Source: an uncultured virus (IMG/VR IMGVR_UViG_3300030376_007244) (taxonomy: Duplodnaviria; Heunggongvirae; Uroviricota; Caudoviricetes). Taken from it: a DNA stretch of 64,000 nucleotides. The notes beneath the pieces were generated by a model that had not been told where the DNA came from, did not search any database, and worked only from the letters and a program-made list of their open reading frames with translations. A program made the position numbers and the translations under genes. The DNA lies in IMG/VR virus record IMGVR_UViG_3300030376_007244; one strand, written 5' to 3'. Positions 10,434 through 59,466 of this stretch are shown here, one piece after another; within the stretch, counting starts at the first letter, position 1; every line of letters starts with the position of its first letter.

Positions 10434-10434
10434 A

Positions 10435-35635: not shown

Positions 35636-37648
35636 ATGAGTGATAAATTTACACTTACACCGTCGTTTGTAAAAAAATACCAGAGAAAGTCAGCACCGTT
35701 CGGTTTTAATGGTCTAGGAGAAATGGTATACATGAGAACATATTCTAGAATCAAAGAAGACGGTAAAAATGAAATGTGGTGGGAAACAGTTAGAAGAGTT
35801 GTTGAAGGCACATACACAATGCAAAAAAAGCATATCGATTCAAATCAATTGGGTTGGAATGCATGGCAAGCACAAAGATCAGCACAGGATATGTACGATA
35901 GAATATTCAATATGAAATTTTTACCACCTGGACGTGGACTGTGGGCAATGGGAACAGAAATGACAGAAGAACGTGGATTGTATGCTGCGTTAAATAATTG
36001 TGCGTTTGTTTCAACGGATACATTAAAGGACGATTTAGCCAAACCATTTTGTTTTCTTATGGACGCATCAATGTTGGGTGTAGGTGTTGGTTTTGACACT
36101 AAAGGTGCAGAAAAAATAATTATAAAGGGTATAGATAAGGGTAAAAATGAACAAACGTTTGTTATACCAGATAGTAGAGAAGGTTGGGTTGAATCGTTAA
36201 AAATGCAGCTAGAAAGCTATTTTATGGGTACAGCAGCAATATCGTTTGATTATTCTGAAATACGAGAAGAAGGTGCACCAATTAAAGGATTCGGTGGAGT
36301 TTCTAGTGGACCAGCACCGTTAGAAGAGTTACATAAAGCTGTTATGGATATTTTAGAAAAAAATACTGGTGAACCAATAACAATAACAACAATTGTAGAC
36401 ATAATGAACTTAATTGGTAAATGTGTCGTGGCTGGTAATGTGAGAAGAACAGCCGAGATTGTATTTGGTGAGCCAGATTCTGAAGAATATTTAGATTTAA
36501 AAAATTATGATGTTAATCCACATAGAGATCAATATGGCTGGACATCAAACAATTCAATATTTGCAGAATTAGGAATGGATTATACTGAAGCTTGTAAAAG
36601 AGTTGTAGATAATGGGGAACCTGGTTTTGCATGGTTAGATAATATGAGAAAATATTCTCGCATGAAAAATGGCGGAGATAATAAGGATCATAGAGTTGCA
36701 GGCGGTAATCCGTGTTTAGAGCAATCATTGGAGAGTTATGAGTTATGCTGTTTGGTTGAAACATTCCCAAACAATCATGATTCGTTTGAGGATTATGCTA
36801 GAACTCTTAAGTATGCGTATTTATATGCGAAAACTGTTACTTTGGGTCGTACACATTGGCCAGAAACAAACAGGGTAATGTTACGTAATAGAAGAATAGG
36901 ATGTTCAGTTAGTGGAATAGCACAATTTATAACATCAAGAGGAATAGACAGTTTAAAGGATTGGTTAAATGATGGATATGGAGTCATACAAACTTGGGAT
37001 AAAATGTATTCAGATTGGTTTGCAGTACCACGTTCCATTAAAACTACTTCTGTTAAACCTTCTGGCACCGTTTCATTATTGGCTGGCGCTACTCCAGGCT
37101 TGCATTATCCCGAGTCTAGGTTTTATATTAGACGTATTAGATTAAGTAATAGCTCTCCATTGATTGCACCATTAGAAAAAGCAGGATACAAAATAGAGCC
37201 TGCTTTTGGATCAGAAGAAACTACTAGTGTAGTTGAAGTTCCAGTAGACGTTGGAGAAGGAATACGAACAGTATCAGATTTAACCGTATGGGAACAATTT
37301 AGTTTAGCTGCTTTTATGCAAAGACATTGGGCAGATAATCAAGTTAGTTGTACAGTTACGTTTAATCCTGAAACTGAAGGACCACAACTTCCTCATGTAT
37401 TAAATTATTTTCAATATCATCTTAAGGGCATAAGTTGCTTACCTAGACATGATTTTGGTGCATTTCCACAAATGCCATATGAATCTATAGACGAAGAAAC
37501 TTATGATAAATTACTTAAGGGATTGGGAAGATTAAGTTTTAGACAAGTAAAAGGGAATGAAGCGGAAGTTGATAAGTTTTGTAACAATGATGTTTGTGAA
37601 ATAATCCCCACAGCCGGTGATAAAGACGATCAGGAATATGCAAACTAA
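35636..37648 (+). CDS. nrdJ: Adenosylcobalamin-dependent ribonucleoside-triphosphate reductase (class II, monomeric type)
   Basis: YMRTYSR, PPGRGLW, LNNCAF, GNVRRTA, NPCLEQ, VKPSGTVS, C-terminal FCNNDVC. Confidence 0.95.
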   Translation: MSDKFTLTPSFVKKYQRKSAPFGFNGLGEMVYMRTYSRIKEDGKNEMWWETVRRVVEGTYTMQKKHIDSNQLGWNAWQAQRSAQDMYDRIFNMKFLPPGRGLWAMGTEMTEERGLYAALNNCAFVSTDTLKDDLAKPFCFLMDASMLGVGVGFDTKGAEKIIIKGIDKGKNEQTFVIPDSREGWVESLKMQLESYFMGTAAISFDYSEIREEGAPIKGFGGVSSGPAPLEELHKAVMDILEKNTGEPITITTIVDIMNLIGKCVVAGNVRRTAEIVFGEPDSEEYLDLKNYDVNPHRDQYGWTSNNSIFAELGMDYTEACKRVVDNGEPGFAWLDNMRKYSRMKNGGDNKDHRVAGGNPCLEQSLESYELCCLVETFPNNHDSFEDYARTLKYAYLYAKTVTLGRTHWPETNRVMLRNRRIGCSVSGIAQFITSRGIDSLKDWLNDGYGVIQTWDKMYSDWFAVPRSIKTTSVKPSGTVSLLAGATPGLHYPESRFYIRRIRLSNSSPLIAPLEKAGYKIEPAFGSEETTSVVEVPVDVGEGIRTVSDLTVWEQFSLAAFMQRHWADNQVSCTVTFNPETEGPQLPHVLNYFQYHLKGISCLPRHDFGAFPQMPYESIDEETYDKLLKGLGRLSFRQVKGNEAEVDKFCNNDVCEIIPTAGDKDDQEYAN

Positions 37649-37665
37649 TTTTACACAAAAAGCGG

Positions 37666-37699
37666 ACAGGCAGACGGCACACCTGTAGAAAAATGTGCC
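37666..37699 (+). promoter_or_regulatory. H-type RNA pseudoknot in the leader of the TonB receptor gene
   Basis: S1 ACAGG(37666-70)/CCTGT(37682-86); S2 GGCACA(37676-81)/TGTGCC(37694-99); A-rich loop AGAAAAA. Confidence 0.65.
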
Positions 37700-37729
37700 A
37701 CTTACTAATCAAAAGCAAGGAGACAGATT

Positions 37730-40456
37730 ATGAACTATCGTAATCTTGCTGTATTATTATTACTCTCAACTGGTTTGTTTGCGCAAACTATGGTAGGAGT
37801 AGTATTAAATGCAGACTCAGAACCACTTGTTGGAGCTAATGTAGTAGTTGAAGAAACAGATATTGGAGGAGTTACCGATTCAGAAGGTAAATTCCAAATA
37901 GATGTCGTTTCTGGGGACTATGACGTTACGGCTTCCTTCATTGGTTATGTTCCTATCACTAAATCAGTTAGTGTTGGGGATATCGTTTCAAGCGTTAATT
38001 TCTTTTTAGAAACTGACGTTGTTGCAATGACAGCATTAGAAGTTTTGGCTTCACGTGCTGACGAGAACACACCTGTTGCTTATACTACGGTTGAAAAAGC
38101 TGAAATGGAAATAAGACTTGGTTCACAAGATATTCCAATGGCTCTTAATATGACACCGTCAGTATATGCGACACAACAAGGTGGAGGTGCGGGTGATGCT
38201 CGTATCAACGTTCGCGGGTTTAACCAAAGAAATGTTGCTGTTATGATTAATGGTGTTCCTCAAAACGATATGGAAAACGGTTGGGTTTATTGGTCCAATT
38301 GGGATGGAGTAGCAGATGCTGCCAATTCTATTCAGATGCAAAGAGGTCTATCAGCAGTCAATCTAGCAACACCTTCTATAGGTGGAACTATGAACATAAT
38401 AACAGATCCTGCTGGTCACGAAAAAGGTGGCAAGTTTAAGCAGGAAGCTGGAGCTGGTGGTTTTATGAAGACCACTTTGAACTACAACTCAGGTCTTATT
38501 AACGATAAGTTGGCTATTAGTGGAACTATCGTTCGTAAAACAGGAGATGGAATCATTGATGGAACTTGGACAGATGCTTGGGCTTACTATTTAGGGTCAA
38601 GTTATGCTGTTAGTGACAAACAACGATTCGAACTATACGCTATTGGTGCACCACAGCGTCATGGTCAAAATCTATACAAGCAGAATATAGCGACTTACTC
38701 GCAAGATCTAGCAGGAGACATTGATGGTTATAATGACTCTGCTTATGTTGCAGGTGAGAAGTTTGAAACTGAAGCTGGTAGATTGTTTAACCAGAACTGG
38801 GCACCTGTGGATGAATCCTATAAAGGCAAACAGTATTTTTATATGTATGGTGCAAACACTGCAGATAGAATGAATGCTGGTATGCTTAATGAAAGGGAAA
38901 ATTACTTCCACAAGCCTCTTGTCAATTTAAACCACTTTTTAACTTTAAATGACAATGCAAGATTAAGTTCAGTACTATATTGGAGTGGTGGCTCTGGTGG
39001 AGGAACTGGAACTTATGGTAGCGTAAGTAGAACACCCGCGGTAGAAGGAGAAAGATGGTATGCATCTTCACCCTGGCAATGGGATTGGAATGCTGAGATA
39101 GCACAGAACTCTGCTAATGTAGATTCTGCTTTTTCAGATACAGAAAATCGCTCAACAGGAATCCTTCGTAATTCAATTAATCGTCAAAACACTTATGGAT
39201 TAATTTCTAAACTTAATTATGATGTATCAGATGAGTTAGAAATTCAAGTAGGTATTGATTGGCGAACTGCTGAAATAGAACATGCGCGTGAAGTACGTGA
39301 TCTACTTGGTGGTGATTATTATGTAGATTATGCAGACGACAATGCCGAAGACGGTAAAATTGTTCGTTTAGGTGATGAAATCGCATACTTTAACACTACA
39401 ACAGTAGACTGGTTTGGTAGTTTTGCACAAGGTAAGTACACAACTGACAAAATGAGTTTATACGGTATGGGTGGTTTATCCACTATAGCTTATTCTTATC
39501 AAGACCACTTTACAGTGCTAAATGAGAAGATTAAAGCTGACCCGATTACTACATTTCAGTTAAAAGGTGGTGCTACTTACAATTTAGATGATCGTATGTC
39601 TGGATTTGTTAATTACGGATACGTTCAAAAGCCGCCAATTATGGACAACGTCATATACTATGATGGAACAGTAGCTACTGACCCTGATAATGAGAAGTTT
39701 AAAAGCTTTGAATTTGGTGGAAAGTATAACAGTGATAAAGTAGCTGTTAAGCTAAGTCAGTACAACACACGCTGGATTGATAGAAATATCACTAAAGCTG
39801 TTTCAACAGGTCAAGGCGATTCTGGTGATACTGATGTTATCTTTTTACGAGGAGTTGAACAAAATCATACTGGTTGGGAAGTGGAAAGTAAAATTGCTGT
39901 TCACGAAATGCTAGATATTGATTTGGCTTTAAGTAAAGGTAATTGGAAGTTCGTAGGTGACGCTGATGGTACATATCAAGAACAAGAGTTCAATGAGAAC
40001 GGTGAAGTAATTGGTATGACAACATCTGAGTATTCTTATGCGCTTAATGACCTTATGGTTGGTGATATGCCACAAACAGCTTATGTTGGTGGATTAACAT
40101 TCAAGCCAATTAAAGGTCTAAACATGCAAGCTCTTTACAGAATGTATGATGATAATTACTCCGATTGGAGTCCTGATTCACGTGAAGTAGATGGTGATGC
40201 AGATAGAGATCAGGTTTGGAAAGCACCTGGTTATGGTAAGTTAGACTTACACTTATCTTATAAGCTTCCAATAGATGCAGTTGATATGACAATATCAGCA
40301 CACATCTTTAATGCACTTGACGGAGTATACGTACAAGATGCTGTTGACAATAGTCAATATAATGGGTATGGTGACAAAGTTCACGCTGCTCATAACGCAG
40401 AAGTATTTCTTGGAACACCAAGATATGCTAATGTAGGAATTTCGGTTAATTTCTAA
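37730..40456 (+). CDS. TonB-dependent outer-membrane receptor (signal peptide, carboxypeptidase-regulatory-like domain, plug, beta-barrel)
   Basis: Signal MNYRNLAVLLLLSTGLFAQ; EPLVGANVVV..GGVTDSEGKF..ASFIGY; plug RINVRGF..VMINGVP..IQMQRG..GGTMNIIT; C-terminal NALD...GTPRYANVGISVNF with terminal Phe. Confidence 0.95.
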   Translation: MNYRNLAVLLLLSTGLFAQTMVGVVLNADSEPLVGANVVVEETDIGGVTDSEGKFQIDVVSGDYDVTASFIGYVPITKSVSVGDIVSSVNFFLETDVVAMTALEVLASRADENTPVAYTTVEKAEMEIRLGSQDIPMALNMTPSVYATQQGGGAGDARINVRGFNQRNVAVMINGVPQNDMENGWVYWSNWDGVADAANSIQMQRGLSAVNLATPSIGGTMNIITDPAGHEKGGKFKQEAGAGGFMKTTLNYNSGLINDKLAISGTIVRKTGDGIIDGTWTDAWAYYLGSSYAVSDKQRFELYAIGAPQRHGQNLYKQNIATYSQDLAGDIDGYNDSAYVAGEKFETEAGRLFNQNWAPVDESYKGKQYFYMYGANTADRMNAGMLNERENYFHKPLVNLNHFLTLNDNARLSSVLYWSGGSGGGTGTYGSVSRTPAVEGERWYASSPWQWDWNAEIAQNSANVDSAFSDTENRSTGILRNSINRQNTYGLISKLNYDVSDELEIQVGIDWRTAEIEHAREVRDLLGGDYYVDYADDNAEDGKIVRLGDEIAYFNTTTVDWFGSFAQGKYTTDKMSLYGMGGLSTIAYSYQDHFTVLNEKIKADPITTFQLKGGATYNLDDRMSGFVNYGYVQKPPIMDNVIYYDGTVATDPDNEKFKSFEFGGKYNSDKVAVKLSQYNTRWIDRNITKAVSTGQGDSGDTDVIFLRGVEQNHTGWEVESKIAVHEMLDIDLALSKGNWKFVGDADGTYQEQEFNENGEVIGMTTSEYSYALNDLMVGDMPQTAYVGGLTFKPIKGLNMQALYRMYDDNYSDWSPDSREVDGDADRDQVWKAPGYGKLDLHLSYKLPIDAVDMTISAHIFNALDGVYVQDAVDNSQYNGYGDKVHAAHNAEVFLGTPRYANVGISVNF

Positions 40457-40465
40457 TTGAAATTT

Positions 40466-40538
40466 GGGGCTGTAGCTCAGTTGGGAGAGCATCGCACTTG
40501 CACTGCGAAGGTCGCTGGTTCGAACCCAGTCAGCTCCA
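40466..40538 (+). tRNA. tRNA-Ala(UGC), CCA not encoded
   Basis: Acceptor GGGGCTG/CAGCTCC with G3:U70, D arm GCTC/GAGC, anticodon arm TCGCA-CTTGCAC-TGCGA, T loop TTCGAAC, discriminator A. Confidence 0.95.
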
Positions 40539-40541
40539 CTA

Positions 40542-40597
40542 CAGGCTAGCTCTCGAGTGTTTGTCTTTATGACATTGTAATTCTCCAGAGCAGCCTG
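40542..40597. ncRNA. Long imperfect hairpin, candidate structured RNA
   Basis: CAGGCT/AGCCTG, GCTCT/AGAGC, GAG/CTC and TGTC/GACA nested stems. Confidence 0.45.
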
Positions 40598-40618
40598 ACC
40601 ATAATTAAAAAAGTTATA

Positions 40619-40692: not shown

Positions 40693-41547
40693 ATGTATGA
40701 ACCAAACCTAAATAAAACTCTATTCAGTATCGTATCAGATGTTATGAGACGTGGCAATGATGTTGAAGCTAGAGGTACAAAGCAAAAAGAAATAACATTT
40801 TATAAATGCACAATAGAAGATCCAACTGATTTATTGATTGCATATCCAGATAGAAAGTTCAATCCAGATTATGCAATTACAGAATGGTTATGGTACTTAT
40901 CTCAACATAAAAGCACAGAAAACATTGGTAAAATGGCTAAGATATGGGATATGATTAAGGATGAAAATGGTGAATGTGAATCAAATTATGGTGAATATCT
41001 CATTCCTTCTGGTCAATGGTCTTGGGTAATAAATGAATTGATTAATGATCCAGATTCTAGACGTGCAACTATTGCCATAAATCAACCATATCATAAAGGT
41101 AAAAACGTAAATGATATTCCATGCACTCAATACATTCAATTTTTTATTCGCAATGGTAGATTGGATATGGGTGTCTATATGAGATCTAACGATGTCATAT
41201 ACGGTTTTTGTAATGATATATTTACATTTTCATTATTTCATCAGTTAATGTGTAATGACTTAAAATCTTTAGGCCTCGATGTTGAATTAGGTGAATATCA
41301 TCACCACGCAGGTAGCATGCACATATATGAAAGACATTATGATATGGCAAATAAGATTATTTCAAATGAAGCATCGGTACATTACAAAAAGCAATTACCT
41401 AAAATTAAATTGCATTCTCATGTTACATTACAATATATATTATCAAAGGAACTCTATCTTCCCCGAGTTCCAATGACAAAACAAGAAATTAAAGAAAAGT
41501 CTTTAGAGTTATCAAAAATGTTATTAGAAGAGGTTTCAAATGGCTAA
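40693..41547 (+). CDS. Thymidylate-synthase-fold enzyme, dCMP hydroxymethylase (T4 gp42)-like
   Basis: EWLWY, SNYG, DSRRA, DIPCT, MRSNDVIYGFCND with Asp at the specificity position, SMHIYERH. Confidence 0.75.
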   Translation: MYEPNLNKTLFSIVSDVMRRGNDVEARGTKQKEITFYKCTIEDPTDLLIAYPDRKFNPDYAITEWLWYLSQHKSTENIGKMAKIWDMIKDENGECESNYGEYLIPSGQWSWVINELINDPDSRRATIAINQPYHKGKNVNDIPCTQYIQFFIRNGRLDMGVYMRSNDVIYGFCNDIFTFSLFHQLMCNDLKSLGLDVELGEYHHHAGSMHIYERHYDMANKIISNEASVHYKKQLPKIKLHSHVTLQYILSKELYLPRVPMTKQEIKEKSLELSKMLLEEVSNG

Positions 41548-46990: not shown

Positions 46991-48481
46991 ATGTACAAGG
47001 TCGGTGATATTCGTAATGGATACGAAGTGCTGCCGAAAGAAGAACGCAAAACCATACTCTTATTGAGTGATGATATGCGTATGACATCTGGAGTTGGAAA
47101 TATGTCCAGAGAAATTGTTATACAAACTATTCATAGGTTTAATTGGGTTCAAATCGGCGGGGCTATCAGTCATCCTGATAACGGAAAAAATGTTGATATG
47201 AATGAAGACATAACAAACAGAACTGGTGTTCCAGATTGCAATGTAAAGGTACACCCAGTTAATGGTTATGGTGATCAAATGCTCGTAAGAGGTTTAATGG
47301 GTCACTACAATGTAAGTGGCTTAATGATTTATACAGACCCAAGATTTTGGGAATGGTTGTTTCAGATGGAAAGAGAGATAAGACAAGATGTACCGATTAT
47401 GTACTATAATATTTGGGACGATTTGCCATATCCAATGTGGAATCAAAAATATTATGATTCAGTAGATGCGTTGTTTAACATATCTAAGCAAACAGTTAAC
47501 ATAGTTAACAATGTTAGATCAGAGATTGAGCCATGGCAATCAACCTACATACCTCATGGAATAAATGAGGAAGATTATTTTCCCATTGATGAGTCATATG
47601 AGAAGCATGACGATTTTTTAAAGTTTAAAGAACAACTCACACGGAAGGGCAAAAAGAAATTTGTAATCTTTTATAATGCTAGAAACATTCGTAGAAAACT
47701 TCCAGGTGATATAGTTTATGCGTATAGAACATTTTGCGATCAGCTTACAAAGGAAGAAGCTGATGAATGTTTATTGTTAATGCACTGTGCACCTAGAGAT
47801 CAGAATGGTACAGACTTACCAAATCTTGTTGAGAATTTGTGTCCAGAATATGATGTTGCATTTTCAGATCATAAATACGAAAGAGAACAGATGAACTGGT
47901 TGTATAATTCTGCAAATGTATCTATATTGATTAGTTCTAATGAAGGCTTTGGTTTAATGGGTGCAGAAACATTAATATGCGGTACTCCATTACTTGTTAA
48001 CGTATCTGGTGGAATGCAAGATTATTGTGGATTTAAAAAAGAAGATGGATCATATTTGACAGTAGATGATTACACGACAGAATGGGGATCTAATCACGAT
48101 GGTCGGTATAAAGATCATGGTGAATGGGTTTTCCCAGTGTGGCCACAATCTAGGTCACTTCAGGGTTCTGTACCGACACCATACATTTCAGACGATAGAC
48201 CTGATTTTCAAGATGTGGCTATTCAGTTACTGACTGCTTACAGATTGGGACCAGATGAACTAAGACGTAGAGGATTAGAAGGTCACAAATACGTAATGAA
48301 TCCAGAATATGGATTTACAGCTTCGGAAATGGGTAGAAGGTTTATAAACGATATTGATACAACGTTTGAGAAGTTCGAACCACGAGATAGGTTTGAAATA
48401 ACAAATGCAATTACGTATACTAAACCTCAGCCTAAATTTAATGGATTAACACTTAGTAAGGAGATTATTGCAAATGTATAA
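46991..48481 (+). CDS. GT-B (GT4-like) glycosyltransferase
   Basis: ILLLSDD..SGVG, YIPHGI, RNIRRK, SSNEGFGL..AE..ICGTP. Confidence 0.88.
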   Translation: MYKVGDIRNGYEVLPKEERKTILLLSDDMRMTSGVGNMSREIVIQTIHRFNWVQIGGAISHPDNGKNVDMNEDITNRTGVPDCNVKVHPVNGYGDQMLVRGLMGHYNVSGLMIYTDPRFWEWLFQMEREIRQDVPIMYYNIWDDLPYPMWNQKYYDSVDALFNISKQTVNIVNNVRSEIEPWQSTYIPHGINEEDYFPIDESYEKHDDFLKFKEQLTRKGKKKFVIFYNARNIRRKLPGDIVYAYRTFCDQLTKEEADECLLLMHCAPRDQNGTDLPNLVENLCPEYDVAFSDHKYEREQMNWLYNSANVSILISSNEGFGLMGAETLICGTPLLVNVSGGMQDYCGFKKEDGSYLTVDDYTTEWGSNHDGRYKDHGEWVFPVWPQSRSLQGSVPTPYISDDRPDFQDVAIQLLTAYRLGPDELRRRGLEGHKYVMNPEYGFTASEMGRRFINDIDTTFEKFEPRDRFEITNAITYTKPQPKFNGLTLSKEIIANV

Positions 48482-49763
48482 GCCAACAGTAGTCGTGACT
48501 TCTCCAGCTGCAACGAGATCTGGATATGGATCTAGGGCTAGAGATGTTATACGAGCATTGATTGATATTGGAAAATACGATGTGCATGTTAATTTGGTTC
48601 CATGGGGTAATACTCCACAAAATGCATTATCGATGGATGATCCAAAAGATAAGATGATCATTGATAGAATAAACTATAATATTGATTTTCAACCTGATGT
48701 ACATGTTCACATTGTTGTACCAAATGAATTCACACCAGCAGGAAAGTTTAATATAGGAATAACTGCAGGATTAGAAACAACGTTGATACCTCAAAGTTGG
48801 ATTGACGGTTGCAATAGAATGGATTTAGTATTAGCCAGTTCAAACTTCTCTGCACAAACTATGGTATCTACAGAGTTTAGAAACGATCAAACAAAGGAAG
48901 TTTTAAAGATAACAAAACCAGTTGGTGTATTATTTGAAGGAGCAGATACAAATCTATACAAGATTACAGATGAATGTTCTGTACCATTAGCTGAGCAGAT
49001 GGATAAAATAAAGGAATCATTTAATTTCTTATTTGTTGGACATTGGCTCCAAGGTGGATTAGGAAGAGATAGAAAAGATGTTGGAATGTTAATTAAAACG
49101 TTTTTAGAAGCTTACACATCTAAGCATAATGTTGGATTAATATTGAAAACATCTGGTGCTACACCTTCAAAAATAGATTATCAAGATTTAATTCATAAGG
49201 TTGAAGAAATAAAGAAAATAGTTAACAATCCAGATCCACCAAACATATACATTCTACATGGAGATCTTCATGATTATGAAATGAATCAACTTTATAATCA
49301 CCCTAAAGTGAAGGCACATGTTACGTTTACACACGGTGAAGGTTTTGGAAGACCATTATTGGAAGCGTCCTTATCTGCTAAACCAGTATTGGCACCAGGT
49401 TGGAGTGGTCACGTAGACTTTTTAGATAAGAAATATGCTGTGTTATTTGGTGGTGGTTTAGTTGGCGTAGGAGAAGACGCACTACCTGAACAAATATTTA
49501 TGAAGGAAATGAAGTGGTTTATGGTCAATCATAAGCAAGCTGCATCAACTATGAAAAATGTTAAACGTAATTATAGGCGTTTTAAGATTGCAGCTAGAAA
49601 GTTAGCTAAGCAAAATGCGGCTAAGTTTTCATTTAAATCTATGGTAAGCCATTTGAACACTATACTTGATCAGAGTCTGCCAAAGTTTACACAGACTGTT
49701 GATGTCAAACTACCAAATCTAAAAAAGCTACCTAAAAAACTACCTAAATTGGAGAAAGCATAA
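48468..49763 (+). CDS. GT-B (GT4-like) glycosyltransferase
   Basis: RSGYG..ARD, FLFVGHW...DRKD, HGEGFGRPLLEA..KPV..GWSGHVDF; start may be ATG 48474. Confidence 0.88.
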   Translation: MQMYKPTVVVTSPAATRSGYGSRARDVIRALIDIGKYDVHVNLVPWGNTPQNALSMDDPKDKMIIDRINYNIDFQPDVHVHIVVPNEFTPAGKFNIGITAGLETTLIPQSWIDGCNRMDLVLASSNFSAQTMVSTEFRNDQTKEVLKITKPVGVLFEGADTNLYKITDECSVPLAEQMDKIKESFNFLFVGHWLQGGLGRDRKDVGMLIKTFLEAYTSKHNVGLILKTSGATPSKIDYQDLIHKVEEIKKIVNNPDPPNIYILHGDLHDYEMNQLYNHPKVKAHVTFTHGEGFGRPLLEASLSAKPVLAPGWSGHVDFLDKKYAVLFGGGLVGVGEDALPEQIFMKEMKWFMVNHKQAASTMKNVKRNYRRFKIAARKLAKQNAAKFSFKSMVSHLNTILDQSLPKFTQTVDVKLPNLKKLPKKLPKLEKA

Positions 49764-50200
49764 TGGAAAGAGTTGTAGATTGTCCACACTGTGGAGATGA
49801 AGATAGGTGTTTTGAAGAAATGCAAGATGGATACAGTAGCTTTATGTGCTTTAACTGTGGATTCATGAGTGATACAAGGTTTACAGAAGAAAACGAAGCT
49901 AAAATGGATAGAGATACTAGCATACTTATTAATAGATTAAGTTGGTATGATGAAATCGGTAAGATATATTGGTTTCCAACTGTATTGAATATGGGTCAAA
50001 AGTTAGGTATGATATTTCCAGAAGGAACAGAAGAAGAGTGGAGATGGACCTATGCAAAAACAGTTCCAATTCCAGAAGAAAAGAAAGCTGCAATGGGAAA
50101 TCATGATTATATGTTAGATGTTGATAATGCAAAAACATATGATAAGTTGGATTTTTTAACTGCATGTAAAGATATGGGAATAGCCAAAGACATCAAATGA
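49763..50200 (+). CDS. Zn-ribbon hypothetical protein
   Basis: CPHC and CFNCG motifs. Confidence 0.7.
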   Translation: MERVVDCPHCGDEDRCFEEMQDGYSSFMCFNCGFMSDTRFTEENEAKMDRDTSILINRLSWYDEIGKIYWFPTVLNMGQKLGMIFPEGTEEEWRWTYAKTVPIPEEKKAAMGNHDYMLDVDNAKTYDKLDFLTACKDMGIAKDIK

Positions 50201-50673
50201 AAAACATCTCATGGAATATTGTAAGACAGGGTGATATTGTCCAGTTTAGATATAAGGGTGTTAGACCCAATGCAAAAGCTAGAATTAGAACAGTTTTGGT
50301 ATTGAATGCAAACCATAAAAAGTCTGTAAAAGATGGAACGGTAAGGTTGGTACACGGTATTGAACTTACTGCAATACCTTCAAGAGTGGGTGTAATAACT
50401 AAACAAGAAAAAGAACGAATGGTTGTTGCAGCTGCAGAAGCACGTGGACTGGAATACAGGCAATTGGATAAGTCTGTAGAAAGGATTGCAATTGTTGAAG
50501 GTAATGCTAAGTCCATATATGCACAACTTAGAACTATAGTGTCTAAACATGGTAACTATAGGACATACAGATATGATAGAGCCAAGAAATACCCAGTAAG
50601 ATTAGACACTGAGTATGACTGGCCTAAGGTTTTAGTCGACGAGTTAAAAGTAAAATTTAATTCACCAAAATAA
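50197..50673 (+). CDS. Hypothetical protein
   Basis: ATGA-coupled basic 158-aa ORF (GDIVQFRY, YRTY). Confidence 0.65.
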   Translation: MKNISWNIVRQGDIVQFRYKGVRPNAKARIRTVLVLNANHKKSVKDGTVRLVHGIELTAIPSRVGVITKQEKERMVVAAAEARGLEYRQLDKSVERIAIVEGNAKSIYAQLRTIVSKHGNYRTYRYDRAKKYPVRLDTEYDWPKVLVDELKVKFNSPK

Positions 50674-50685
50674 ACAGGAGGTTAT

Positions 50686-51279
50686 ATGTTAACGGCAATT
50701 GGCGATGTAATGCGAGAAGCATATAAACGCGGATGGATAACCACAAGAGATGGGAATATCTCTGTAAAAATGCGAGGTAGAAAAACCTTGTACATCACTC
50801 CGTCCGGTTGGAGAAAAACAATAATTCATCCAGAACACGTAGTAAAATTAAGATACGAAGACAATAGAAAATTAATCGTAAGAAAAAATAATGCCAGTGG
50901 TGAATTACATATGCATCACTTGATTCAATCTGGAACTATGAGTACAACATCAGTTGTACATTTACACCCAACTTACACGATAGCGGCAATGCATGCAGGA
51001 CATGATCTACAAAAAGTGGCTAGAGATTTTCCAGAGATTAGTCGATACACCAAAGTAGGACGAACAGTTCCAGAGCTTCCACCAATATCTGAAGAACTGG
51101 GATTGGCAACTGCTGATGCAATTGGAACAGGTGAAGGTGAAGATAACATACAGTATGATATTGTTGGACAAGAAGCACACGGTGTATGTGCAGTTGGTTG
51201 TAACCCATGGGATGCATTCGAACACATAGAACGATTAGAACATATTTGTCAAATTGTTTTAGCTTCTGGAAAATTATAA
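50686..51279 (+). CDS. Class II aldolase/adducin family protein
   Basis: DGNIS, ITPSG, SGELHMH, VVHLHP, HGV, IERLEH. Confidence 0.9.
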   Translation: MLTAIGDVMREAYKRGWITTRDGNISVKMRGRKTLYITPSGWRKTIIHPEHVVKLRYEDNRKLIVRKNNASGELHMHHLIQSGTMSTTSVVHLHPTYTIAAMHAGHDLQKVARDFPEISRYTKVGRTVPELPPISEELGLATADAIGTGEGEDNIQYDIVGQEAHGVCAVGCNPWDAFEHIERLEHICQIVLASGKL

Positions 51280-51289
51280 CAATATATAT
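51264..51289 (+). promoter_or_regulatory. Putative middle-class promoter; ATG follows 5 nt after core (leaderless)
   Basis: TTCTGG at 51264, ATATATAT at 51282, ATG at 51295, no SD. Confidence 0.55.
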
Positions 51290-51294
51290 AATAA

Positions 51295-51918
51295 ATGAAA
51301 ATAAGTTACGCAGTTACAACACATCAAGAGCATGAGGAAATATCAAGGCTAATACCATTTTTATTGGAACATAAGGATGATGAAGATGAATTGGTTATTG
51401 TTGACGACTATTCTGATTATAAATGTTGGGCAACCTTTGATAAAGTAATACACAGAGAAGATGTTACATTTGTTGAGCACCAACTAAATAACGATTTTGC
51501 GGTACATAAGAACTTTTTAAATTCTAACTGTACTGGAGACTGGATTGTCAACATAGATGCTGATGAAATGCCTCATGAGCAGTTGATAAAAAACATAAAA
51601 CTGCTGATAGAAACAAACCCAACAGTTGAACTTTATTGGGTACCGAGAGTGAACACAGTAGATGGAATAACACCTGAACATGTTAGAGCATGGGGTTGGA
51701 ATGTTGATGATAAAGGATGGGTAAACTTTCCAGATCCTCAGCAAAGAATTTATAAGAACGCAGAGCATATTCAATGGGTTAGACCAGTTCATGAACGATT
51801 AATTGGTGCAGTACAAGATGCATACTTACCATTCGAAGAGGAATGGAGTTTCTATCATCATAAAACAATAAGCAAACAAGAACAACAAAATAAACACTAT
51901 ACGGAAATATTAAAATGA
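51295..51918 (+). CDS. GT2 glycosyltransferase
   Basis: ISYAVT, VIVDDYS, NIDADE, VPRVN, PDPQQRIY, VHE. Confidence 0.9.
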   Translation: MKISYAVTTHQEHEEISRLIPFLLEHKDDEDELVIVDDYSDYKCWATFDKVIHREDVTFVEHQLNNDFAVHKNFLNSNCTGDWIVNIDADEMPHEQLIKNIKLLIETNPTVELYWVPRVNTVDGITPEHVRAWGWNVDDKGWVNFPDPQQRIYKNAEHIQWVRPVHERLIGAVQDAYLPFEEEWSFYHHKTISKQEQQNKHYTEILK

Positions 51919-52781
51919 AAGCATTAGTAACAGGTGGAGCAGGATTTGTAGGAACAAACCTAATAAATAAGCTCGTAAAAGATGGTCATGAAGTGATCAG
52001 TATTGATAACTATTCAACTGGCTTTACTGAGAATCATAACATAAAGGCAACATATCACAACTTAGATATAGCAAAGGTTACAAGCTATACAGCTTATACT
52101 AAACCAGATGTTGTGTTTCATTTGGCAGCTTTGGCAAGAATACAACCTTCATTGAAAAATCCAAGAAAATGTATAGAAAACAATTTTAATGGTACGTTTA
52201 ACGTTGTAGAATGGTGTAGAATAAACAATATCCCATTAGTTTACGCTGGTTCATCATCGATGCATCACGGTTTATACGGAAGCCCTTATGCATGGTCAAA
52301 GTTTGGTGGTGAAGAACTTTGTAGATTGTACACGAATGCATTCAATTTGAAAACTGCTATATGTAGATTTTACAATGTATATGGAGATTGTCAACTAGAA
52401 GATGGAGAATATGCAACTGTTATTGGAATATTTCTAAAACAGTTTAGAGAAGGAAAGCCGTTGACAATAACATCAGATGGTAAACAAAGACGAGATTTTA
52501 CACATGTAGACTTTATTGTAGAAGGATTAGTTAGCTGTGCACACGGACTTTTAAATGATACACTCATTGAAGGAGAAACGTTTGAATTGGGAACTGGTAG
52601 TAATCACTCGATAAATGAATTAGCTGATATGTTCCCATCAGATTATCCACGAGAATACATATCAAAACGAAAAGGTGAGTACGACTCTACATTGTGTGAT
52701 ATATCCTATGCTGAAGAGGTATTGGGTTATGAACCAAAGGACGTACTAAAGGATTACATAAGGAAGGCAACTAATGTATGA
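51915..52781 (+). CDS. NAD-dependent sugar epimerase/dehydratase
   Basis: GGAGFVG, HLAA, YAWSK, RFYNVYG, RDFTHV. Confidence 0.93.
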   Translation: MKALVTGGAGFVGTNLINKLVKDGHEVISIDNYSTGFTENHNIKATYHNLDIAKVTSYTAYTKPDVVFHLAALARIQPSLKNPRKCIENNFNGTFNVVEWCRINNIPLVYAGSSSMHHGLYGSPYAWSKFGGEELCRLYTNAFNLKTAICRFYNVYGDCQLEDGEYATVIGIFLKQFREGKPLTITSDGKQRRDFTHVDFIVEGLVSCAHGLLNDTLIEGETFELGTGSNHSINELADMFPSDYPREYISKRKGEYDSTLCDISYAEEVLGYEPKDVLKDYIRKATNV

Positions 52782-53475
52782 TGCATTTGTATTGACGTAT
52801 GATACACCTGATGGTATTGTACATAAGAAAACTCAGGATCTATTACTAAACCTAAAGACTAAAGGTTACCATGATATAATAGTTTATGGATTACCGTGGG
52901 TTGAAAGAAAGAATTTTAAATCTTTAATACCACACAGACATTTTGAACCAATCAATGTTAGCACACGAGATTTATGTGAAAGGTTGGGATATGTATATAG
53001 CGCATTGCCTATGGAAGACGTAGTCAGTCAAATGGATGTATACAGTGAAATGTACCTGTTAATTGGTGGAGCTGGAATTCTACCTAAAGAATTGTGCGAT
53101 ACGAACAGGGTAATAAATTCTCATCCAGCCTTTTTACCATACGTTAGAGGGTTGGACTCTTTAAAGTGGGCAATATACGAAGGTCAACCAGTAGGAGTTA
53201 CTTCACATATAATATCAGATGAGTGCGATGCTGGTTTTCTAATAAAACGGGAAATGGTTGCATTATATTCGTGGGATACATTTCATAGTGTGGCAAGAAG
53301 ACAGTACGATATGGAAATCAACATGTTAGTAGACGCTTTAGAAGATGTTAAAACAGCTGATCTTACACACGAATTGACAACATCAAAATCTGAAGCACAC
53401 AGAAGAATGTCACATCAGCACGAAATGAGATTGATGAAAAGGTTTAGAAAGATGATAGATGGGATACAAATCTGA
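52774..53475 (+). CDS. N10-formyl-THF-dependent formyltransferase-like protein
   Basis: INSHPAFLPYVRG...GVTSH..SDECDAG. Confidence 0.8.
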   Translation: MYDAFVLTYDTPDGIVHKKTQDLLLNLKTKGYHDIIVYGLPWVERKNFKSLIPHRHFEPINVSTRDLCERLGYVYSALPMEDVVSQMDVYSEMYLLIGGAGILPKELCDTNRVINSHPAFLPYVRGLDSLKWAIYEGQPVGVTSHIISDECDAGFLIKREMVALYSWDTFHSVARRQYDMEINMLVDALEDVKTADLTHELTTSKSEAHRRMSHQHEMRLMKRFRKMIDGIQI

Positions 53476-54494
53476 TGTTCCTTCATGTTGTAGGAGCAAG
53501 ACCTCAGTTTATGAAGTTGGCTCCACTTGCACAACAGTTTGAAAAGAAGGGAATGGATTACGACATATTACATACTGGTCAACATTATGATAAAAATATG
53601 TCTGATGATTTTTTCAAAGAATTAGGAATTAAGAAACCAGATTATTTGTTGGACCACAATGGTAAGCCATATCCAGAATTGTTGTCTGATATGATAGAGG
53701 ACATTAGTTACCATATAAATCAATACACAGATGTTGTAGTTTATGGAGATACACTTTCAACATTAGCTGGATCTTTAGCCGCAAGTTTTAGTGGCAAAAC
53801 TCTTCATCATGTAGAATCAGGTTTAAGGCTTCCAAGTTTACAAATGCCAGAGGAAAGAATACGTAGAATGGTAGATGAAGTATCTGATCATCTGTATTGT
53901 ATATCTGAATCGGATGCTAAGAATCTATCGCATGTAAACGGAGATGTGCACGTGGTTGGTGACATTATGTACGATAATTTTTTGCATAGAGAAGTTTCCG
54001 ACTCTCCATTTTATGGTATCATCCCTTATGTTTTTGTAACAATACACAGAGAAGAAAACACACATAAAAAAGAGTTAACGTTTATTATAGAACAGTTAAA
54101 TCAGCTTAGTAAGACTATTGATATAGTTTTTCCAGTTCATCCTAGAACACAAGCTGCAATAGACGAATACAATATAAGTGTAGAGTTTCCAATACATGAT
54201 ACTATGTCACAACTACAAACTTTACAATACATCAACGGATGTGAGTATGTTATTTCAGATAGTGGAGGTGTACCAAAAGAAGCATATTGGATGAAAAAGA
54301 AAAGCATTGTTGTATTAAAGGATTTGGTTTATCCAGTTTTAGAGGAACACAATTATTGTATGAGAGCTGATTATAATAAAATTTTACGTTGCGTAAATAA
54401 TATAGACAAACTAGATACACCATCATTTATGGTTAAAAACCTATTAGGGTATGGTGACGCAGCGCACAGAATAACGGAGATAATGAATGCATAG
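53475..54494 (+). CDS. Non-hydrolysing UDP-GlcNAc 2-epimerase family (WecB/WbpI-like)
   Basis: VVGARPQFMK, HTGQHYD, YGDT, HVESGLR, MPEE, TIHREEN, DSGGVPKEA. Confidence 0.92.
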   Translation: MFLHVVGARPQFMKLAPLAQQFEKKGMDYDILHTGQHYDKNMSDDFFKELGIKKPDYLLDHNGKPYPELLSDMIEDISYHINQYTDVVVYGDTLSTLAGSLAASFSGKTLHHVESGLRLPSLQMPEERIRRMVDEVSDHLYCISESDAKNLSHVNGDVHVVGDIMYDNFLHREVSDSPFYGIIPYVFVTIHREENTHKKELTFIIEQLNQLSKTIDIVFPVHPRTQAAIDEYNISVEFPIHDTMSQLQTLQYINGCEYVISDSGGVPKEAYWMKKKSIVVLKDLVYPVLEEHNYCMRADYNKILRCVNNIDKLDTPSFMVKNLLGYGDAAHRITEIMNA

Positions 54495-55383
54495 ATTCGG
54501 ATTGATAGGAGCCGCAGGATATATAGCTCCAAAACATATGAGAGCAATAAAGGATACAGGAAACGATTTGGTGTCGATATTGGATCCAAATGATTCAGTC
54601 GGTATAATAGATAGTCATTTTCCAGAGGCATCATATTTTTCAGAATTTGAACGGTTTGATAGACACTTAGATAGGTCTAGAAGAATGGGAAAGGGTGTAG
54701 ATTATATTAGTATAGCTTCACCAAATTATTTACATGATTCCCATATGAGATTTGCCCTAAAGACTGATGCACATGCAATATGTGAAAAGCCTTTGGTTAT
54801 GAATCCATACGCTTTAAATTCACTCAAACAGTTGGAACAAGAAACTGGTAAACGGGTATACCCGATACTACAATTAAGATTGCATCCAAGTATTGTAAAA
54901 CTTAAGAAAAAAATTGAAAAAAGTGTTTCCAATTCTCATCAAATTGTATTAGATTATGTTACGCCCAGAGGAAAATGGTATAACTATTCGTGGAAAGGAA
55001 ATCATGACAAGTCAGGAGGAGTTGCAACAAACATTGGTATACACTTCTTTGATATGTTACTTTGGATATTTGGACCAGTTCAAAACAGCTATGTTGATTA
55101 TCACACAGATACTAAAGCTAGTGGACATTTAGAGTTGGAAAAGGCAAATGTACAGTGGAGACTAAGCATAGATGCAAACGACATACCTAAAATGGGCATA
55201 ATAAGAGAATGGAAAGCTTACAGATCAATTACTATAGATGGAAAAGAAATAGAATTTTCAGATGGTTTCACAGATTTACACACTGAAAGTTATAAGAATA
55301 TATTGAATGGCAAGGGATTTACAATAGACGATGCAGAACCTTCACTAAAACTTGTACATCAAATAAGGAACTCTAAAAAATGA
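54487..55383 (+). CDS. UDP-GlcNAcA 3-dehydrogenase (WbpB/WlbA-like, Gfo/Idh/MocA)
   Basis: IGAAGYIAPKH, DSVGIIDSHFP, SPNYLHDSH, CEKP, SWKG..KSGGVATNIGIHFFD, EFSDGFTDLH. Confidence 0.9.
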   Translation: MHRFGLIGAAGYIAPKHMRAIKDTGNDLVSILDPNDSVGIIDSHFPEASYFSEFERFDRHLDRSRRMGKGVDYISIASPNYLHDSHMRFALKTDAHAICEKPLVMNPYALNSLKQLEQETGKRVYPILQLRLHPSIVKLKKKIEKSVSNSHQIVLDYVTPRGKWYNYSWKGNHDKSGGVATNIGIHFFDMLLWIFGPVQNSYVDYHTDTKASGHLELEKANVQWRLSIDANDIPKMGIIREWKAYRSITIDGKEIEFSDGFTDLHTESYKNILNGKGFTIDDAEPSLKLVHQIRNSKK

Positions 55384-56357
55384 ACAATGAAAACATTATA
55401 ATATACGTTTCATCTCGAAACAATTATGACATGTTAGAAGGTGAAGTGTTTAAGAACATAGACAGAGAAGGGTTTGAACTAATAAACGTAGACGATAAAT
55501 CATCAGAAGAGGAAGTACAAAAGGGCAAACAAATGTGTGACACTGCTGGTATTGTATTCTTAGAGAATAAATCCAGAGGTGTGCAAATGGCAACCGATAC
55601 TGTTGTTGATTTTATATCCGATAATAGACCAAATTGTAAGTGGATTATTTGTTTTCAGCATGACATTTATCCAGTTAGTAAGAACTTTTTTTCTAGACTA
55701 TCAGCATTGATAGAGACTGGAAAGCTAGACGAATTTGGTGGAGTAGGTTTTAATATATTGGATAAGGGTGATTATGCTGGAAATGCTTGGGAATTATTTC
55801 AAAATGGTGAGATGCCAATTGGTGGAATTGGGTTTGGACACCTAGGTATATCGGATAATAGTGGAAGATGGTTGGCAACAGGAAAAAACTCAACAGTTAG
55901 AAATAAACCTGAATTATTTAAGAATCCATTTATATGCGAATTTGCAATGTGGCCTGTGGTAGGGTTAAACGTAAATGTATGGAAGGATAAAGTCATAGCA
56001 AGTGAAGACTATCAATTTCACATTTGGTATCCAGATGTAGCAATGCAATTGAACTATAATAATTTTCCAATAGTTCAGCTTCCAAGATTGTATTGTTATA
56101 ACAATCAGTGGCTCAAAGAAAAATACGGAATGCATTATAACAGTGCAGTTGGAGCAAGACAAGGAGACGCATACCATTTCGGTAGTTATGGAGATCATTT
56201 TACCGCATGGAAAGAGAGATGGGGTTGGGACTATGAAAATGTGTATGGAACATTTGAATCTATAAAACACAATTATGAAGGAACATTAATCTACGATTAC
56301 TACCACCATGACTATGATAATGGACCATTAAAAACATATAATTTTGGAGAATATTAA
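55380..56357 (+). CDS. GT-A glycosyltransferase-like protein
   Basis: IYVSSRNN, INVDDKS, WIICFQHD. Confidence 0.65.
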   Translation: MNNENIIIYVSSRNNYDMLEGEVFKNIDREGFELINVDDKSSEEEVQKGKQMCDTAGIVFLENKSRGVQMATDTVVDFISDNRPNCKWIICFQHDIYPVSKNFFSRLSALIETGKLDEFGGVGFNILDKGDYAGNAWELFQNGEMPIGGIGFGHLGISDNSGRWLATGKNSTVRNKPELFKNPFICEFAMWPVVGLNVNVWKDKVIASEDYQFHIWYPDVAMQLNYNNFPIVQLPRLYCYNNQWLKEKYGMHYNSAVGARQGDAYHFGSYGDHFTAWKERWGWDYENVYGTFESIKHNYEGTLIYDYYHHDYDNGPLKTYNFGEY

Positions 56358-56359
56358 CG

Positions 56360-57328
56360 ATGAAAGTATTAGTAACTGGAGCAGCAGGATTAATTGGTAG
56401 TCACATGTGTGATGTACTAGTTAGTAATGGTCATGAGGTAATTGCAGTTGATGACCTTTCATATGGTAACCCGGATAATATTAATAAAAACGTAAAATTT
56501 ATAGAAGCAGATTGTTCAACCGATTTTGCAAGTTTATCGAATAATTGTATGTGTGAAGTTTCATGTGGTTGCGATATAACTGACATAGATTTCATATATC
56601 ATTTTGCTTCTGTAAAGAAATTGTGGAATGACATAGATGAAACAAATATTTTAGACGTAAATTTTAGAATGACAAAACAAGTTGTAGATTTAGCTATAAA
56701 AAATAATGCTCACTTAGTGTTTGCATCTACTTCTGATGTATACGGAAATCACGATACATTTTTAGAGTCAGATCCGATTACAATTGGACCTTCAACCATA
56801 GAAAGGTATTCGTATGCAATGTCAAAACTACACAGCGAACAATACATTTTAAACTTGGTCAACAAAAATAAATTGGATGCAACAATAATACGTGTATTTG
56901 GTTGTGCATCAGAGAGATCGGCTAAGAGTTATTTAGGAATGCACGTTGCCCTGTTTACAGTACAAGCAATCAATAGTGAAGAGATAACAATATTTGACGA
57001 TGGATTACAAACGAGATCTATATCTCATGCTGAAGATGTTGTAAACGGTTTTTATGCAGTGATAGATAATAGTGTTAGAGCAAACGGAGAAATAATAAAT
57101 TTAGGAACTGATCAGCAAACAACGATAAAGTATGTAGCTGAATATATTACTGATAGAATACGATATTCAGGTAACATAAAATATGTGCCAATGGAGGAAC
57201 GATTTAAGGGATACCCAGAAATAAAGGTTAGGTTTGCAAATTTAGATAAGGCTAAAGAATTATTAAATTATAAAGTAACTAAAACAACAGAGGATGTTAT
57301 GGACGAAATAATTGAGGCATGGGCATGA
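56360..57328 (+). CDS. NAD-dependent epimerase/dehydratase (UDP-glucuronate decarboxylase-like)
   Basis: GAAGLIG, FASTSDVYG, RYSYAMSK, GLQTRS. Confidence 0.9.
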   Translation: MKVLVTGAAGLIGSHMCDVLVSNGHEVIAVDDLSYGNPDNINKNVKFIEADCSTDFASLSNNCMCEVSCGCDITDIDFIYHFASVKKLWNDIDETNILDVNFRMTKQVVDLAIKNNAHLVFASTSDVYGNHDTFLESDPITIGPSTIERYSYAMSKLHSEQYILNLVNKNKLDATIIRVFGCASERSAKSYLGMHVALFTVQAINSEEITIFDDGLQTRSISHAEDVVNGFYAVIDNSVRANGEIINLGTDQQTTIKYVAEYITDRIRYSGNIKYVPMEERFKGYPEIKVRFANLDKAKELLNYKVTKTTEDVMDEIIEAWA

Positions 57329-58943: not shown

Positions 58944-59466
58944 AATATTAACGATCATACCAGCTAAGTTAGATTCTACTAGACTGAAGGAAAAGAACAT
59001 TCGGCAATTAGATGGCAAACCTTTATTTCATCATAGTATAGATTATGCAAAGGATTCGCGTCACCTAAATACTATAGTTGTATCTACCGAAAGCGTAAAG
59101 TTGGCTTCGATGATACCAGATGGTGTGTATCACCACTATAGAGATTCTTCTCTTTGTGGAGACGTTGAAGTGGTAGAGGTATATTTGGATGTAGTAAAAA
59201 AATCAGATTCATATTACGATTATGTAGTGTGTCTCCAACCAGATAATCCAAACCGTAGTAACACATTAGACGAATGTTTGGATTACATGATATCGAATAA
59301 CTATGATGATCTGGTTACAGTGAATGAAAAATATAAAAGAAGTGGATCTGTCAGAATATTCAAATACGATGACTTAGTAAATGAAACTGTTTCGAAAAGA
59401 ATGGGTATCATCAAAGATTCAGCAGTAGACATACATTATAAAGAAGATTTAGAGGCAATACAATGA
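58921..59466 (+). CDS. neuA: CMP-nonulosonate synthetase (acylneuraminate cytidylyltransferase)
   Basis: IIPAKLDSTRLKEKNI..LDGKPL, VVSTES, LQPDNPNR, VDIH. Confidence 0.85.
   Translation: MKSKRRYKILTIIPAKLDSTRLKEKNIRQLDGKPLFHHSIDYAKDSRHLNTIVVSTESVKLASMIPDGVYHHYRDSSLCGDVEVVEVYLDVVKKSDSYYDYVVCLQPDNPNRSNTLDECLDYMISNNYDDLVTVNEKYKRSGSVRIFKYDDLVNETVSKRMGIIKDSAVDIHYKEDLEAIQ

Follow-up and report, generated by a model that had tools for sequence, protein, structure and literature searches.

The uncultured Caudoviricetes virus filed as IMG/VR IMGVR_UViG_3300030376_007244 encodes, within the 64,000-nt stretch of its DNA analysed here (the window, to whose full length all positions refer), a TonB-dependent transporter (TBDT) directly behind nrdJ, the gene for a class II ribonucleotide reductase that uses vitamin B12 as its cofactor. 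This TBDT is probably a functional TonB-dependent outer-membrane importer that was captured once from a Marinimicrobia (SAR406) host and has since been kept as an accessory (auxiliary metabolic) gene. The parts of the protein to which the argument refers are as follows.

37730–40456, + strand: TBDT, 908 aa, assigned by domain matches and predicted fold.
Within 37730–40456, + strand: putative signal peptide (aa 1–19), CarboxypepD_reg-like extension (aa 20–100) and TonB-box/linker region (aa 101–112).
Within 37730–40456, + strand: plug (about aa 113–255) and 22-strand barrel (about aa 261–908), the last residue being Phe.
38036–38059, + strand: candidate TonB box (aa 103–110, LEVLASRA), lying after the N-terminal extension and before the plug, assigned by conservation and position.

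Read directly from the sequence, the N-terminus resembles a signal peptide, with a basic start, a hydrophobic core and a cleavage-like site ending in FAQ. It is followed by Pfam matches to CarbopepD_reg_2 (residues 23–101, E 1.5e-15) and Plug (PF07715, residues 112–220, E 3.2e-14, 53.8 bits against a cut-off of 23.9); the motif NDMENGWVYWSNW occupies residues 179–191. The barrel region matches none of the Pfam barrel models even at E ≤ 10, and its borders and the count of 22 strands are our reading of the DSSP string from an AlphaFold2 model with a predicted local distance difference test score (pLDDT) of 70.6, in which the barrel lies mostly at 70–90 and the plug is poor. A Foldseek search with this model returns 299 Protein Data Bank (PDB) matches at E ≤ 0.001, headed by Fiu, PqqU, YncD and FhuA and including FecA (E 8.5e-28 to about 1e-21; target-normalised template modelling scores mostly 0.6–0.76), and as modelled the fold is that of a bona fide TonB-dependent transporter. 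Family-level annotation is generic: a protein atlas places the TBDT in a generic TonB barrel family, its distant relatives bear generic names, and PHROGs yields phrog_5687 alone, a family of unknown function, over the plug region. The protein does not qualify as SusC/RagA-type, since its TIGR04056 score of 58 bits falls short of the cut-off (368) and comes from residues 20–180 only; downstream in the window lie a tRNA-Ala and thyA, with no SusD/RagB lipoprotein gene adjoining. Open reading frames and domain matches agree with a preliminary description of this locus, which had reported an intact 908-aa TBDT with a signal-peptide-like start, a plug and a terminal Phe, 81 nt after nrdJ.

The gene is maintained under purifying selection. 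None of the 116 full-length copies extracted has an interrupted open reading frame, and the ratio of nonsynonymous to synonymous substitution (dN/dS) falls between 0.07 and 0.19 in 14 of 14 phage pairs. When conservation is compared between phage and host region by region, using a topology derived from the predicted model, the lowest entropy is found in the plug and the next lowest in the TonB-box/linker region (0.28–0.39 across both groups), with the TonB-box region at 0.39 in phages and 0.37 in hosts; over this region and the plug, 91–100% of positions have the same consensus residue in phages and in hosts. Within LEVLASRA, which we take to be the TonB box from its position and from the consensus for such boxes, E104, A107, S108 and R109 are invariant among 41 phage and host sequences, conservation is 90% or higher at V105, L106 and A110, and F908 at the C-terminus is likewise invariant. 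The extracellular loops show an entropy of 0.55 in phages versus 1.07 in hosts, keep their lengths and have not diverged from those of the host, and a single one of the 908 positions carries a fixed host-to-phage difference. Judged from these comparisons, the phage protein reproduces the host transporter faithfully, presumably including its coupling to TonB, and is not a variant with an altered surface. The intact reading frame, the low dN/dS and the conserved plug and candidate TonB box together make an import module the best-supported reading of the gene. Two marks of an auxiliary metabolic gene, host derivation amid phage genes and purifying selection, are present. The preliminary description had proposed a nutrient or cofactor import module; its general part, import, is borne out by the host-derived, intact and selected gene, and its specific part, the supply of B12, is not.

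The phage gene descends from a cellular one. In a tree rooted on distant relatives of 31–47% identity (from Gemmatimonas, Calditrichota and Bacteroidota, together with one Marinimicrobia paralogue), the phage copies form a single clade with an SH-like approximate likelihood ratio test (SH-aLRT) support of 99, nested among cellular orthologues. A tree that keeps the cellular rows together is rejected by the approximately unbiased (AU) test, run on a 43-row subset (delta lnL 94.8, p-AU 1.3e-6). On the cellular side, 68 loci in species-representative genomes (genome_contigs) were surveyed, and 12 other window genes were tested for co-occurrence. The TBDT orthologue is 52–71% identical to the phage protein in 66 of these loci, which are cellular and contain none of the 12 genes; several sit on contigs of 200–570 kb. 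By record title, 47 of the 66 belong to Marinimicrobia/Neomarinimicrobiota/Fidelibacterota, 17 to unnamed bacteria and 2 to other metagenome-assembled genome (MAG) labels, and 71 of 121 sampled genomes of the Marinimicrobia phylum hold an orthologue at E ≤ 1e-50. The phage TBDT is best read, on its phylogeny, as the product of one host-to-phage capture from this phylum. The two other loci, L082 and L089, come from MAGs labelled Flavobacteriales and Methanobacteriota; they carry the nrdJ-TBDT pair, accompanied in L089 by gp32, UvsX, FEN and DnaB, and are mis-binned phage contigs. A survey of 120 neighbours of 20 cellular orthologues reveals a housekeeping context, with a gene for an SRAP peptidase directly upstream in 12 of the 20 loci.

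Two further cellular records deserve mention. The locus L091 comes from a MAG labelled Winogradskyella, yet its sequence is almost that of L092, a locus of Marinimicrobia. A nominally cellular TBDT falls inside the phage clade on the 4,266-nt contig L083 from a Neomarinimicrobiota MAG (TBDT at 986–3736); no pseudoknot leader precedes it, its neighbours are a gene for a DegT aminotransferase and one for a second CarboxypepD_reg protein, and either back-transfer from phage to cell or mis-binning of a fragment could account for it.

In the window the TBDT forms part of the following arrangement.

35636–37648, + strand: nrdJ, class II (RTPR-type) adenosylcobalamin-dependent ribonucleoside-triphosphate reductase, 670 aa (TIGR02505, Pfam, phrog_367).
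37649–37729, + strand: 81-nt TBDT leader, in which a pseudoknot is followed by a G-poor A/C/T-rich linker and the Shine-Dalgarno sequence AAGGAG at 37717–37722 (read from the sequence).
37666–37699, + strand: H-type RNA pseudoknot, 34 nt (covariation in viral leaders).
37649–40416, + strand: segment absent from the near-identical phage contig L164, comprising the leader and the TBDT open reading frame except its last ~40 nt (alignment).
40466–40539, + strand: tRNA-Ala (anticodon tgc), starting 9 nt past the TBDT stop codon (ARAGORN; Rfam tRNA, 70 bits).
40693–41547, + strand: thymidylate synthase gene thyA (Pfam Thymidylat_synt, phrog_160).

The window as a whole represents a region of a myovirus with a T4-like tail, and all its genes lie on the + strand. 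Collagen-repeat fibre proteins, sheath, tube and baseplate come early; a replication block with gp32, UvsX/RecA, FEN, DnaB, nrdJ, ThyA, dUTPase and PolB follows the structural genes, and a large sugar/nonulosonic-acid biosynthesis cluster occupies the last part. The TBDT had been placed among phage replication genes, and the genes around it confirm this. The identification of the upstream gene as a class II, B12-dependent reductase also holds: its product scores 368.1 bits on the NCBIfam equivalog TIGR02505, above the cut-off of 340, and matches Pfam RNR_Alpha and RNR-II_ins_dom as well as phrog_367.

The combination is widespread. In IMG/VR, relatives of the TBDT occur in at least 363 stretches, and metagenomes hold more than 5000 related proteins; the locus counts use 80 kept stretches of the 363, with TBDTs 65–100% identical, of which 77 have enough upstream DNA to be informative. 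The linkage between nrdJ and the TBDT, proposed earlier as a point to be checked across phages, is found in 73 of these 77 loci, with nrdJ immediately 5′ of the TBDT; in two more nrdJ lies upstream and is split off by an insert of ~1.1 kb, and in the other two, L052 and L067, it is missing while the TBDT and its leader are kept. Phage genes flank the TBDT on both sides in 75 of the 77. The recurrence of the order nrdJ, leader, TBDT in 73 independent viral contigs excludes a chimeric assembly. Across loci the TBDT is 64–96% identical, similar to nrdJ (full-length copies mostly 73–87%) and above DnaB (47–78%) and FEN (30–68%). Downstream, the neighbour is thyA in the sub-lineage of the window and PolB in most other loci.

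It is equally clear that the TBDT can be absent. A search anchored on nrdJ covered 510 viral stretches and added 78 new loci, 65 of which have at least 600 nt downstream and are informative: 39 hold a TBDT and 26 lack it, nrdJ running directly into PolB or ThyA. The contig L164 catches such an absence at close range. Its flanking genes are 91–99% identical to those of the window (DnaB 96%, nrdJ 91%, ThyA 92%, dUTPase 97%, PolB 95%); it aligns to window positions 37321–37648 and then skips to 40417–40539, so that the nrdJ stop codon is followed directly by the last ~40 nt of the TBDT reading frame and then by the same tRNA-Ala. L164 is a clean deletion of window positions 37649–40416. Away from nrdJ, the leader and TBDT stand with a tRNA-Ala among sugar-modification genes in L052, and near an HSP20 gene and a halogenase gene in L067. 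Leader and TBDT occur together apart from nrdJ in these two loci and are lost in others, as a cassette would be; the site next to nrdJ is accordingly a cargo slot, a matter of position and not of functional coupling.

Some features of the slot itself may be added. The tRNA-Ala is retained in L164 and lies behind the TBDT in L160, L165, L013 and L052, and in the relatives L165, L013 and L162 it is joined by tRNAs for Glu, Gln and Cys, which suggests that the slot behind the cassette is also a small tRNA island. A further 78 nt of the window (40540–40617, from the tRNA-Ala to the region upstream of thyA), which contain an imperfect long inverted repeat, are also absent from L164 (position 3049 onward).

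The leader of the TBDT contains a conserved RNA pseudoknot. Stem S1 (5 bp) pairs 37666–37670 with 37682–37686 and stem S2 (6 bp) pairs 37676–37681 with 37694–37699; loop 3 (37687–37693) is A-rich, and there is no loop 2. In an alignment of 50 distinct viral leaders, giving 550 cells over the 11 base pairs, 98.2% of cells are paired and compensatory changes occur in 6 of the 11 pairs; the covariation score is 0.237 versus 0.099 for shuffled alignments, none of 500 shuffles reaches 0.237, and slid control alignments pair in just 18–53%. The pseudoknot accompanies the TBDT in all 50 leaders, including those of L052 and L067, and was not seen by eye upstream of the cellular orthologues examined. 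A structural motif scan of the window finds the TBDT leader and two weak matches inside reading frames, against 0.75 expected by chance; the TBDT leader is the sole convincing instance in the window, and neither inspection nor the scan reveals a gene-32-like knot upstream of the window's gp32 gene. Rfam, searched with the leader at E ≤ 10, returns three noise-level matches (E 0.5–4.3, far below gathering scores) and no riboswitch, and its covariance models do not place the leader in known classes of small pseudoknot riboswitch such as preQ1. A role as a readthrough or frameshift signal for nrdJ was considered and rejected, since the pseudoknot is present without nrdJ in L052 and L067; moreover, the spacing from the nrdJ stop codon to the knot varies from ~6 to more than 30 nt. 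The element could control translation as an operator, stabilise the mRNA or work as a small riboswitch. In many viral loci a short TTCACATAC-like motif lies ~5–15 nt 5′ of the knot and is also present upstream of the TBDT in the cellular loci L091 and L092; one possible reading is that it marks a transcription start or a promoter inherited from the host.

These data can be assembled into a scenario in which the ancestor of a clade of marine T4-like myoviruses would have taken the TBDT once from a SAR406 host, and in which the gene would since have travelled as a self-contained cassette of 34-nt pseudoknot leader, strong Shine-Dalgarno sequence and open reading frame, usually lodged in a cargo slot that has nrdJ on one side and PolB or thyA on the other. 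During infection the protein would be exported via Sec, as its signal peptide suggests, and inserted into the outer membrane by virtue of its C-terminal Phe, where the TonB-ExbBD system of the host could energise it through the conserved candidate TonB box. Import of the substrate of the host orthologue would thereby be raised or maintained in the infected cell, which could aid phage production in a nutrient-poor ocean, and the pseudoknot would be specific to the phages and act in cis, on translation or on the stability of the mRNA. ExbB was not found in five large phage contigs, which are 34–66% complete, so that this is not evidence of absence. Contigs filed under metatranscriptomes (four runs from three studies) contain most of the TBDT reading frame at 92–99% likeness, the longest piece measuring 1,599 nt, and are consistent with its expression; the 3′ end of nrdJ and the 5′ end of thyA have little or no cover in these runs and are uninformative.

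Several observations weigh against the proposal of a captured, functional importer. The RNA runs consist of contigs that may hold DNA, and can neither prove transcription nor give transcript ends. Plug residues 129–190 are modelled at a pLDDT below 50. The clade used in the AU test was defined only after the tree had been inspected, and the link to a SAR406 host comes from gene phylogeny and MAG labels and not from a physical association of virus and host. The surveyed neighbours of the cellular orthologues are of the housekeeping kind, and genes for SusD, TonB/ExbBD, siderophores or cobalamin were not found among them. Finally, the TBDT is dispensable in many relatives, so that any benefit it confers is conditional.

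The most obvious alternative, and one put forward when the locus was first described, is that the TBDT imports vitamin B12 for the adjacent NrdJ. NrdJ is indeed a B12 enzyme, its gene lies directly 5′ of the TBDT in the great majority of loci, and no terminator-like site was found between the two on the + strand, so that co-transcription is possible; the promoter and terminator scan of the window runs at chance level, with 11 sites found against 10.6 expected. The hosts nevertheless appear to have assigned cobalamin to another gene. In four of five Marinimicrobia genomes holding the TBDT orthologue there is exactly one cobalamin riboswitch (73–86 bits), which lies away from that orthologue and precedes a different TBDT reading frame of 681–704 aa that matches CarboxypepD_reg or Plug, in some cases weakly. 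For the riboswitch-linked protein from L157 the best PDB matches are Bacteroides BtuB/BtuB1 (8p98_A, 8blw_A), and the one from L154 resembles the phage TBDT in its N-terminal part only (BLASTP E 0.009). The cobalamin riboswitch RF00174 was not found at window positions 37500–37900 at E ≤ 10, nor at gathering score in the whole window or at four cellular orthologue loci. BtuB is missing from the PDB sequence matches of the phage TBDT at E ≤ 0.01, whether profile or single sequence is used, and from the Foldseek top 50. With the cellular orthologue adjoining nrdJ in 0 of 66 loci, and each of the two genes occurring in phages without the other, a B12 importer is very unlikely, and the earlier proposal is not upheld. 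A different form of specific import, of nucleotides, nucleosides or oligonucleotides for phage dNTP synthesis, would suit a TBDT inside a nucleotide-metabolism block (nrdJ, thyA, dUTPase), and near the host orthologue a gene for S1/P1 nuclease is seen in 4 of 20 loci and for deoxynucleoside kinase in 3 of 20. These neighbours, however, occur in no more than one or two sub-clades of related hosts and stand outside any TBDT operon, the commonest neighbour, SRAP, has no link to transport, and the cassette also occurs in sugar-modification and other contexts; we know of no TBDT for nucleotides, and consider this form of import improbable.

Another class of explanation dispenses with import. TBDTs commonly serve as phage receptors, and a phage copy of a surface receptor might replace or mask it and so exclude superinfection, act as a decoy or modulate the adsorption of sister phages. 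A window rich in surface chemistry, with collagen-like fibres and a large sugar/nonulosonic-acid cluster, would fit such a role, as would the secreted TonB C-terminal domain encoded by some relatives, which could block TonB-dependent entry. Yet the phage loops are the less variable ones and keep their lengths, the whole protein shows a single fixed difference from the host, and conservation is greatest in the candidate TonB box and plug, for which a mask or decoy has no need. Extra copies of the phage's own receptor would, moreover, be expected to trap progeny, and the window has no secreted TonB module. The suggestion of receptor replacement or exclusion in the preliminary description has gained no support from the loops, and a receptor-related function is unlikely. 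That the gene is a functionless passenger, a contaminant or a misassembly would agree with its loss without obvious harm in many relatives, and the two MAGs with mis-binned phage contigs illustrate that binning errors occur. This explanation is set against dN/dS of 0.07–0.19 over a clade 65–96% identical to the window TBDT, uninterrupted reading frames throughout, a dedicated and covarying leader, and identical junctions in 73 independent contigs; the data on selection and recurrence leave it next to no probability and in effect refute it.

The surface-related genes mentioned above merit a description of their own. Contigs of the TBDT-bearing relatives L032 and L036 (also L048) encode a protein of 107–130 aa, at L236:3247–3570 (+) and L237:3494–3886 (−), in which a signal peptide is fused to a TonB C-terminal domain (PF03544, 45–46 bits, cut-off 24.6) with no membrane anchor; the gene shares a module with two prepilin-like proteins, immediately 5′ of gp32, that has no counterpart in the window. 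By analogy with a precedent in E. coli, a TonB domain free in the periplasm could block TonB-dependent uptake or phage entry. In the window itself, two very large collagen-triple-helix-repeat proteins, one with an endosialidase-chaperone (Peptidase_S74) domain at its C-terminus, are followed by a 2-oxoglutarate/Fe(II) (2OG-Fe(II)) oxygenase, a DUF6445 protein and GT2 glycosyltransferases (241–3684, 4791–7850, 7908–8501 and 9540–13004), which suggests collagen-like tail fibres that are hydroxylated or glycosylated. The block at 46991–63388, ~16 kb in length, encodes NeuB, a CMP-transferase, a UDP-GlcNAc 2-epimerase, epimerases/dehydratases, a formyltransferase and several glycosyltransferases, and its products could alter the surface of the host or be used to decorate the virion.

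SAR406 bacteria are among the most abundant uncultured bacteria of the dark ocean and of low-oxygen waters, and their viruses are almost unknown. With a host-derived TBDT nested within the SAR406 clade, hundreds of viral contigs can be assigned to a host from sequence. A full outer-membrane gate under strong selection would mean that viruses reshape uptake from seawater at the outermost barrier of the cell, and the covarying 34-nt pseudoknot offers a small, tractable RNA element outside the catalogued families. More speculatively, the system could represent the first conserved energy-coupled outer-membrane importer among viral accessory genes, joined to a new class of pseudoknot riboregulator that ties the import of a scarce marine nutrient to infection, in an unrecognised, large and abundant group of SAR406 myoviruses; we regard this larger claim as doubtful, but if it is true, presence/absence variants such as L164 would constitute a natural experiment on when extra import pays. 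The locus also carries a caution for annotation: a transporter encoded beside a cofactor-dependent enzyme should not, on position alone, be taken to import the cofactor of that enzyme. A full-text search of the literature yielded no description of this phage TBDT clade or of its leader, a statement that applies to the article texts, as supplementary tables might list the gene.

The closest counterpart of the phage TBDT is the chromosomal orthologue of the Marinimicrobia (~910–990 aa, CarboxypepD_reg-Plug-barrel), which shares its domain order and loop pattern, a full-length identity of 52–71% and a near-identical TonB-box region and plug. It differs in having no pseudoknot leader and in its housekeeping context, often behind an SRAP gene and never near nrdJ. 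The marine megaphages Mar_Mega_1 and LR745206 have been reported to encode a TonB-dependent receptor ('SusC') among their auxiliary metabolic genes, with a proposed role in raising nutrient uptake (PMC9723777). It resembles the window TBDT as a phage-borne transporter proposed to serve nutrient uptake. The source gives it a brief mention that includes no phylogeny and no analysis of selection or linkage, and describes no leader RNA (PMC9723777); the host belongs to another phylum. GenBank megaphage records match the window TBDT in the plug region only, at 22–29% coverage and 23–27% identity. BtuB (of E. coli, and BtuB1-3 of Bacteroides, PDB 8p98 and 8blw) shares the general TBDT fold and, in the Fibrobacterota-Chlorobiota-Bacteroidota (FCB) group, the CarboxypepD_reg-like N-terminal extension. 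The window TBDT is ~220 aa longer, has no cobalamin riboswitch and matches BtuB neither in sequence nor among the top 50 folds.

For the leader, a parallel exists in the translational operator of T4 gene 32 mRNA, where a 5′ pseudoknot is followed by an unstructured A/U-rich stretch that extends to the ribosome-binding site and the ligand is the ssDNA-binding protein of the phage. The TBDT leader repeats the order of these elements, with a small H-type pseudoknot on its 5′ side, an unstructured G-poor stretch and a Shine-Dalgarno sequence; unlike the T4 operator, it precedes a transporter gene, has no similar knot before the gp32 gene of its own phage and stands outside Rfam. For the transporter, the nearest functional parallel is pstS of cyanophages, a periplasmic binding protein of the phosphate ATP-binding cassette (ABC) system that is host-derived, accessory and patchy in distribution and is thought to relieve nutrient limitation of the phage. 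Phage uptake genes described so far are mostly periplasmic or inner-membrane components. Like pstS, the TBDT is a host-derived, accessory and patchily distributed uptake component of marine myoviruses; unlike pstS, it would act as an energy-coupled gate in the outer membrane that relies on the TonB-ExbBD system of the host.

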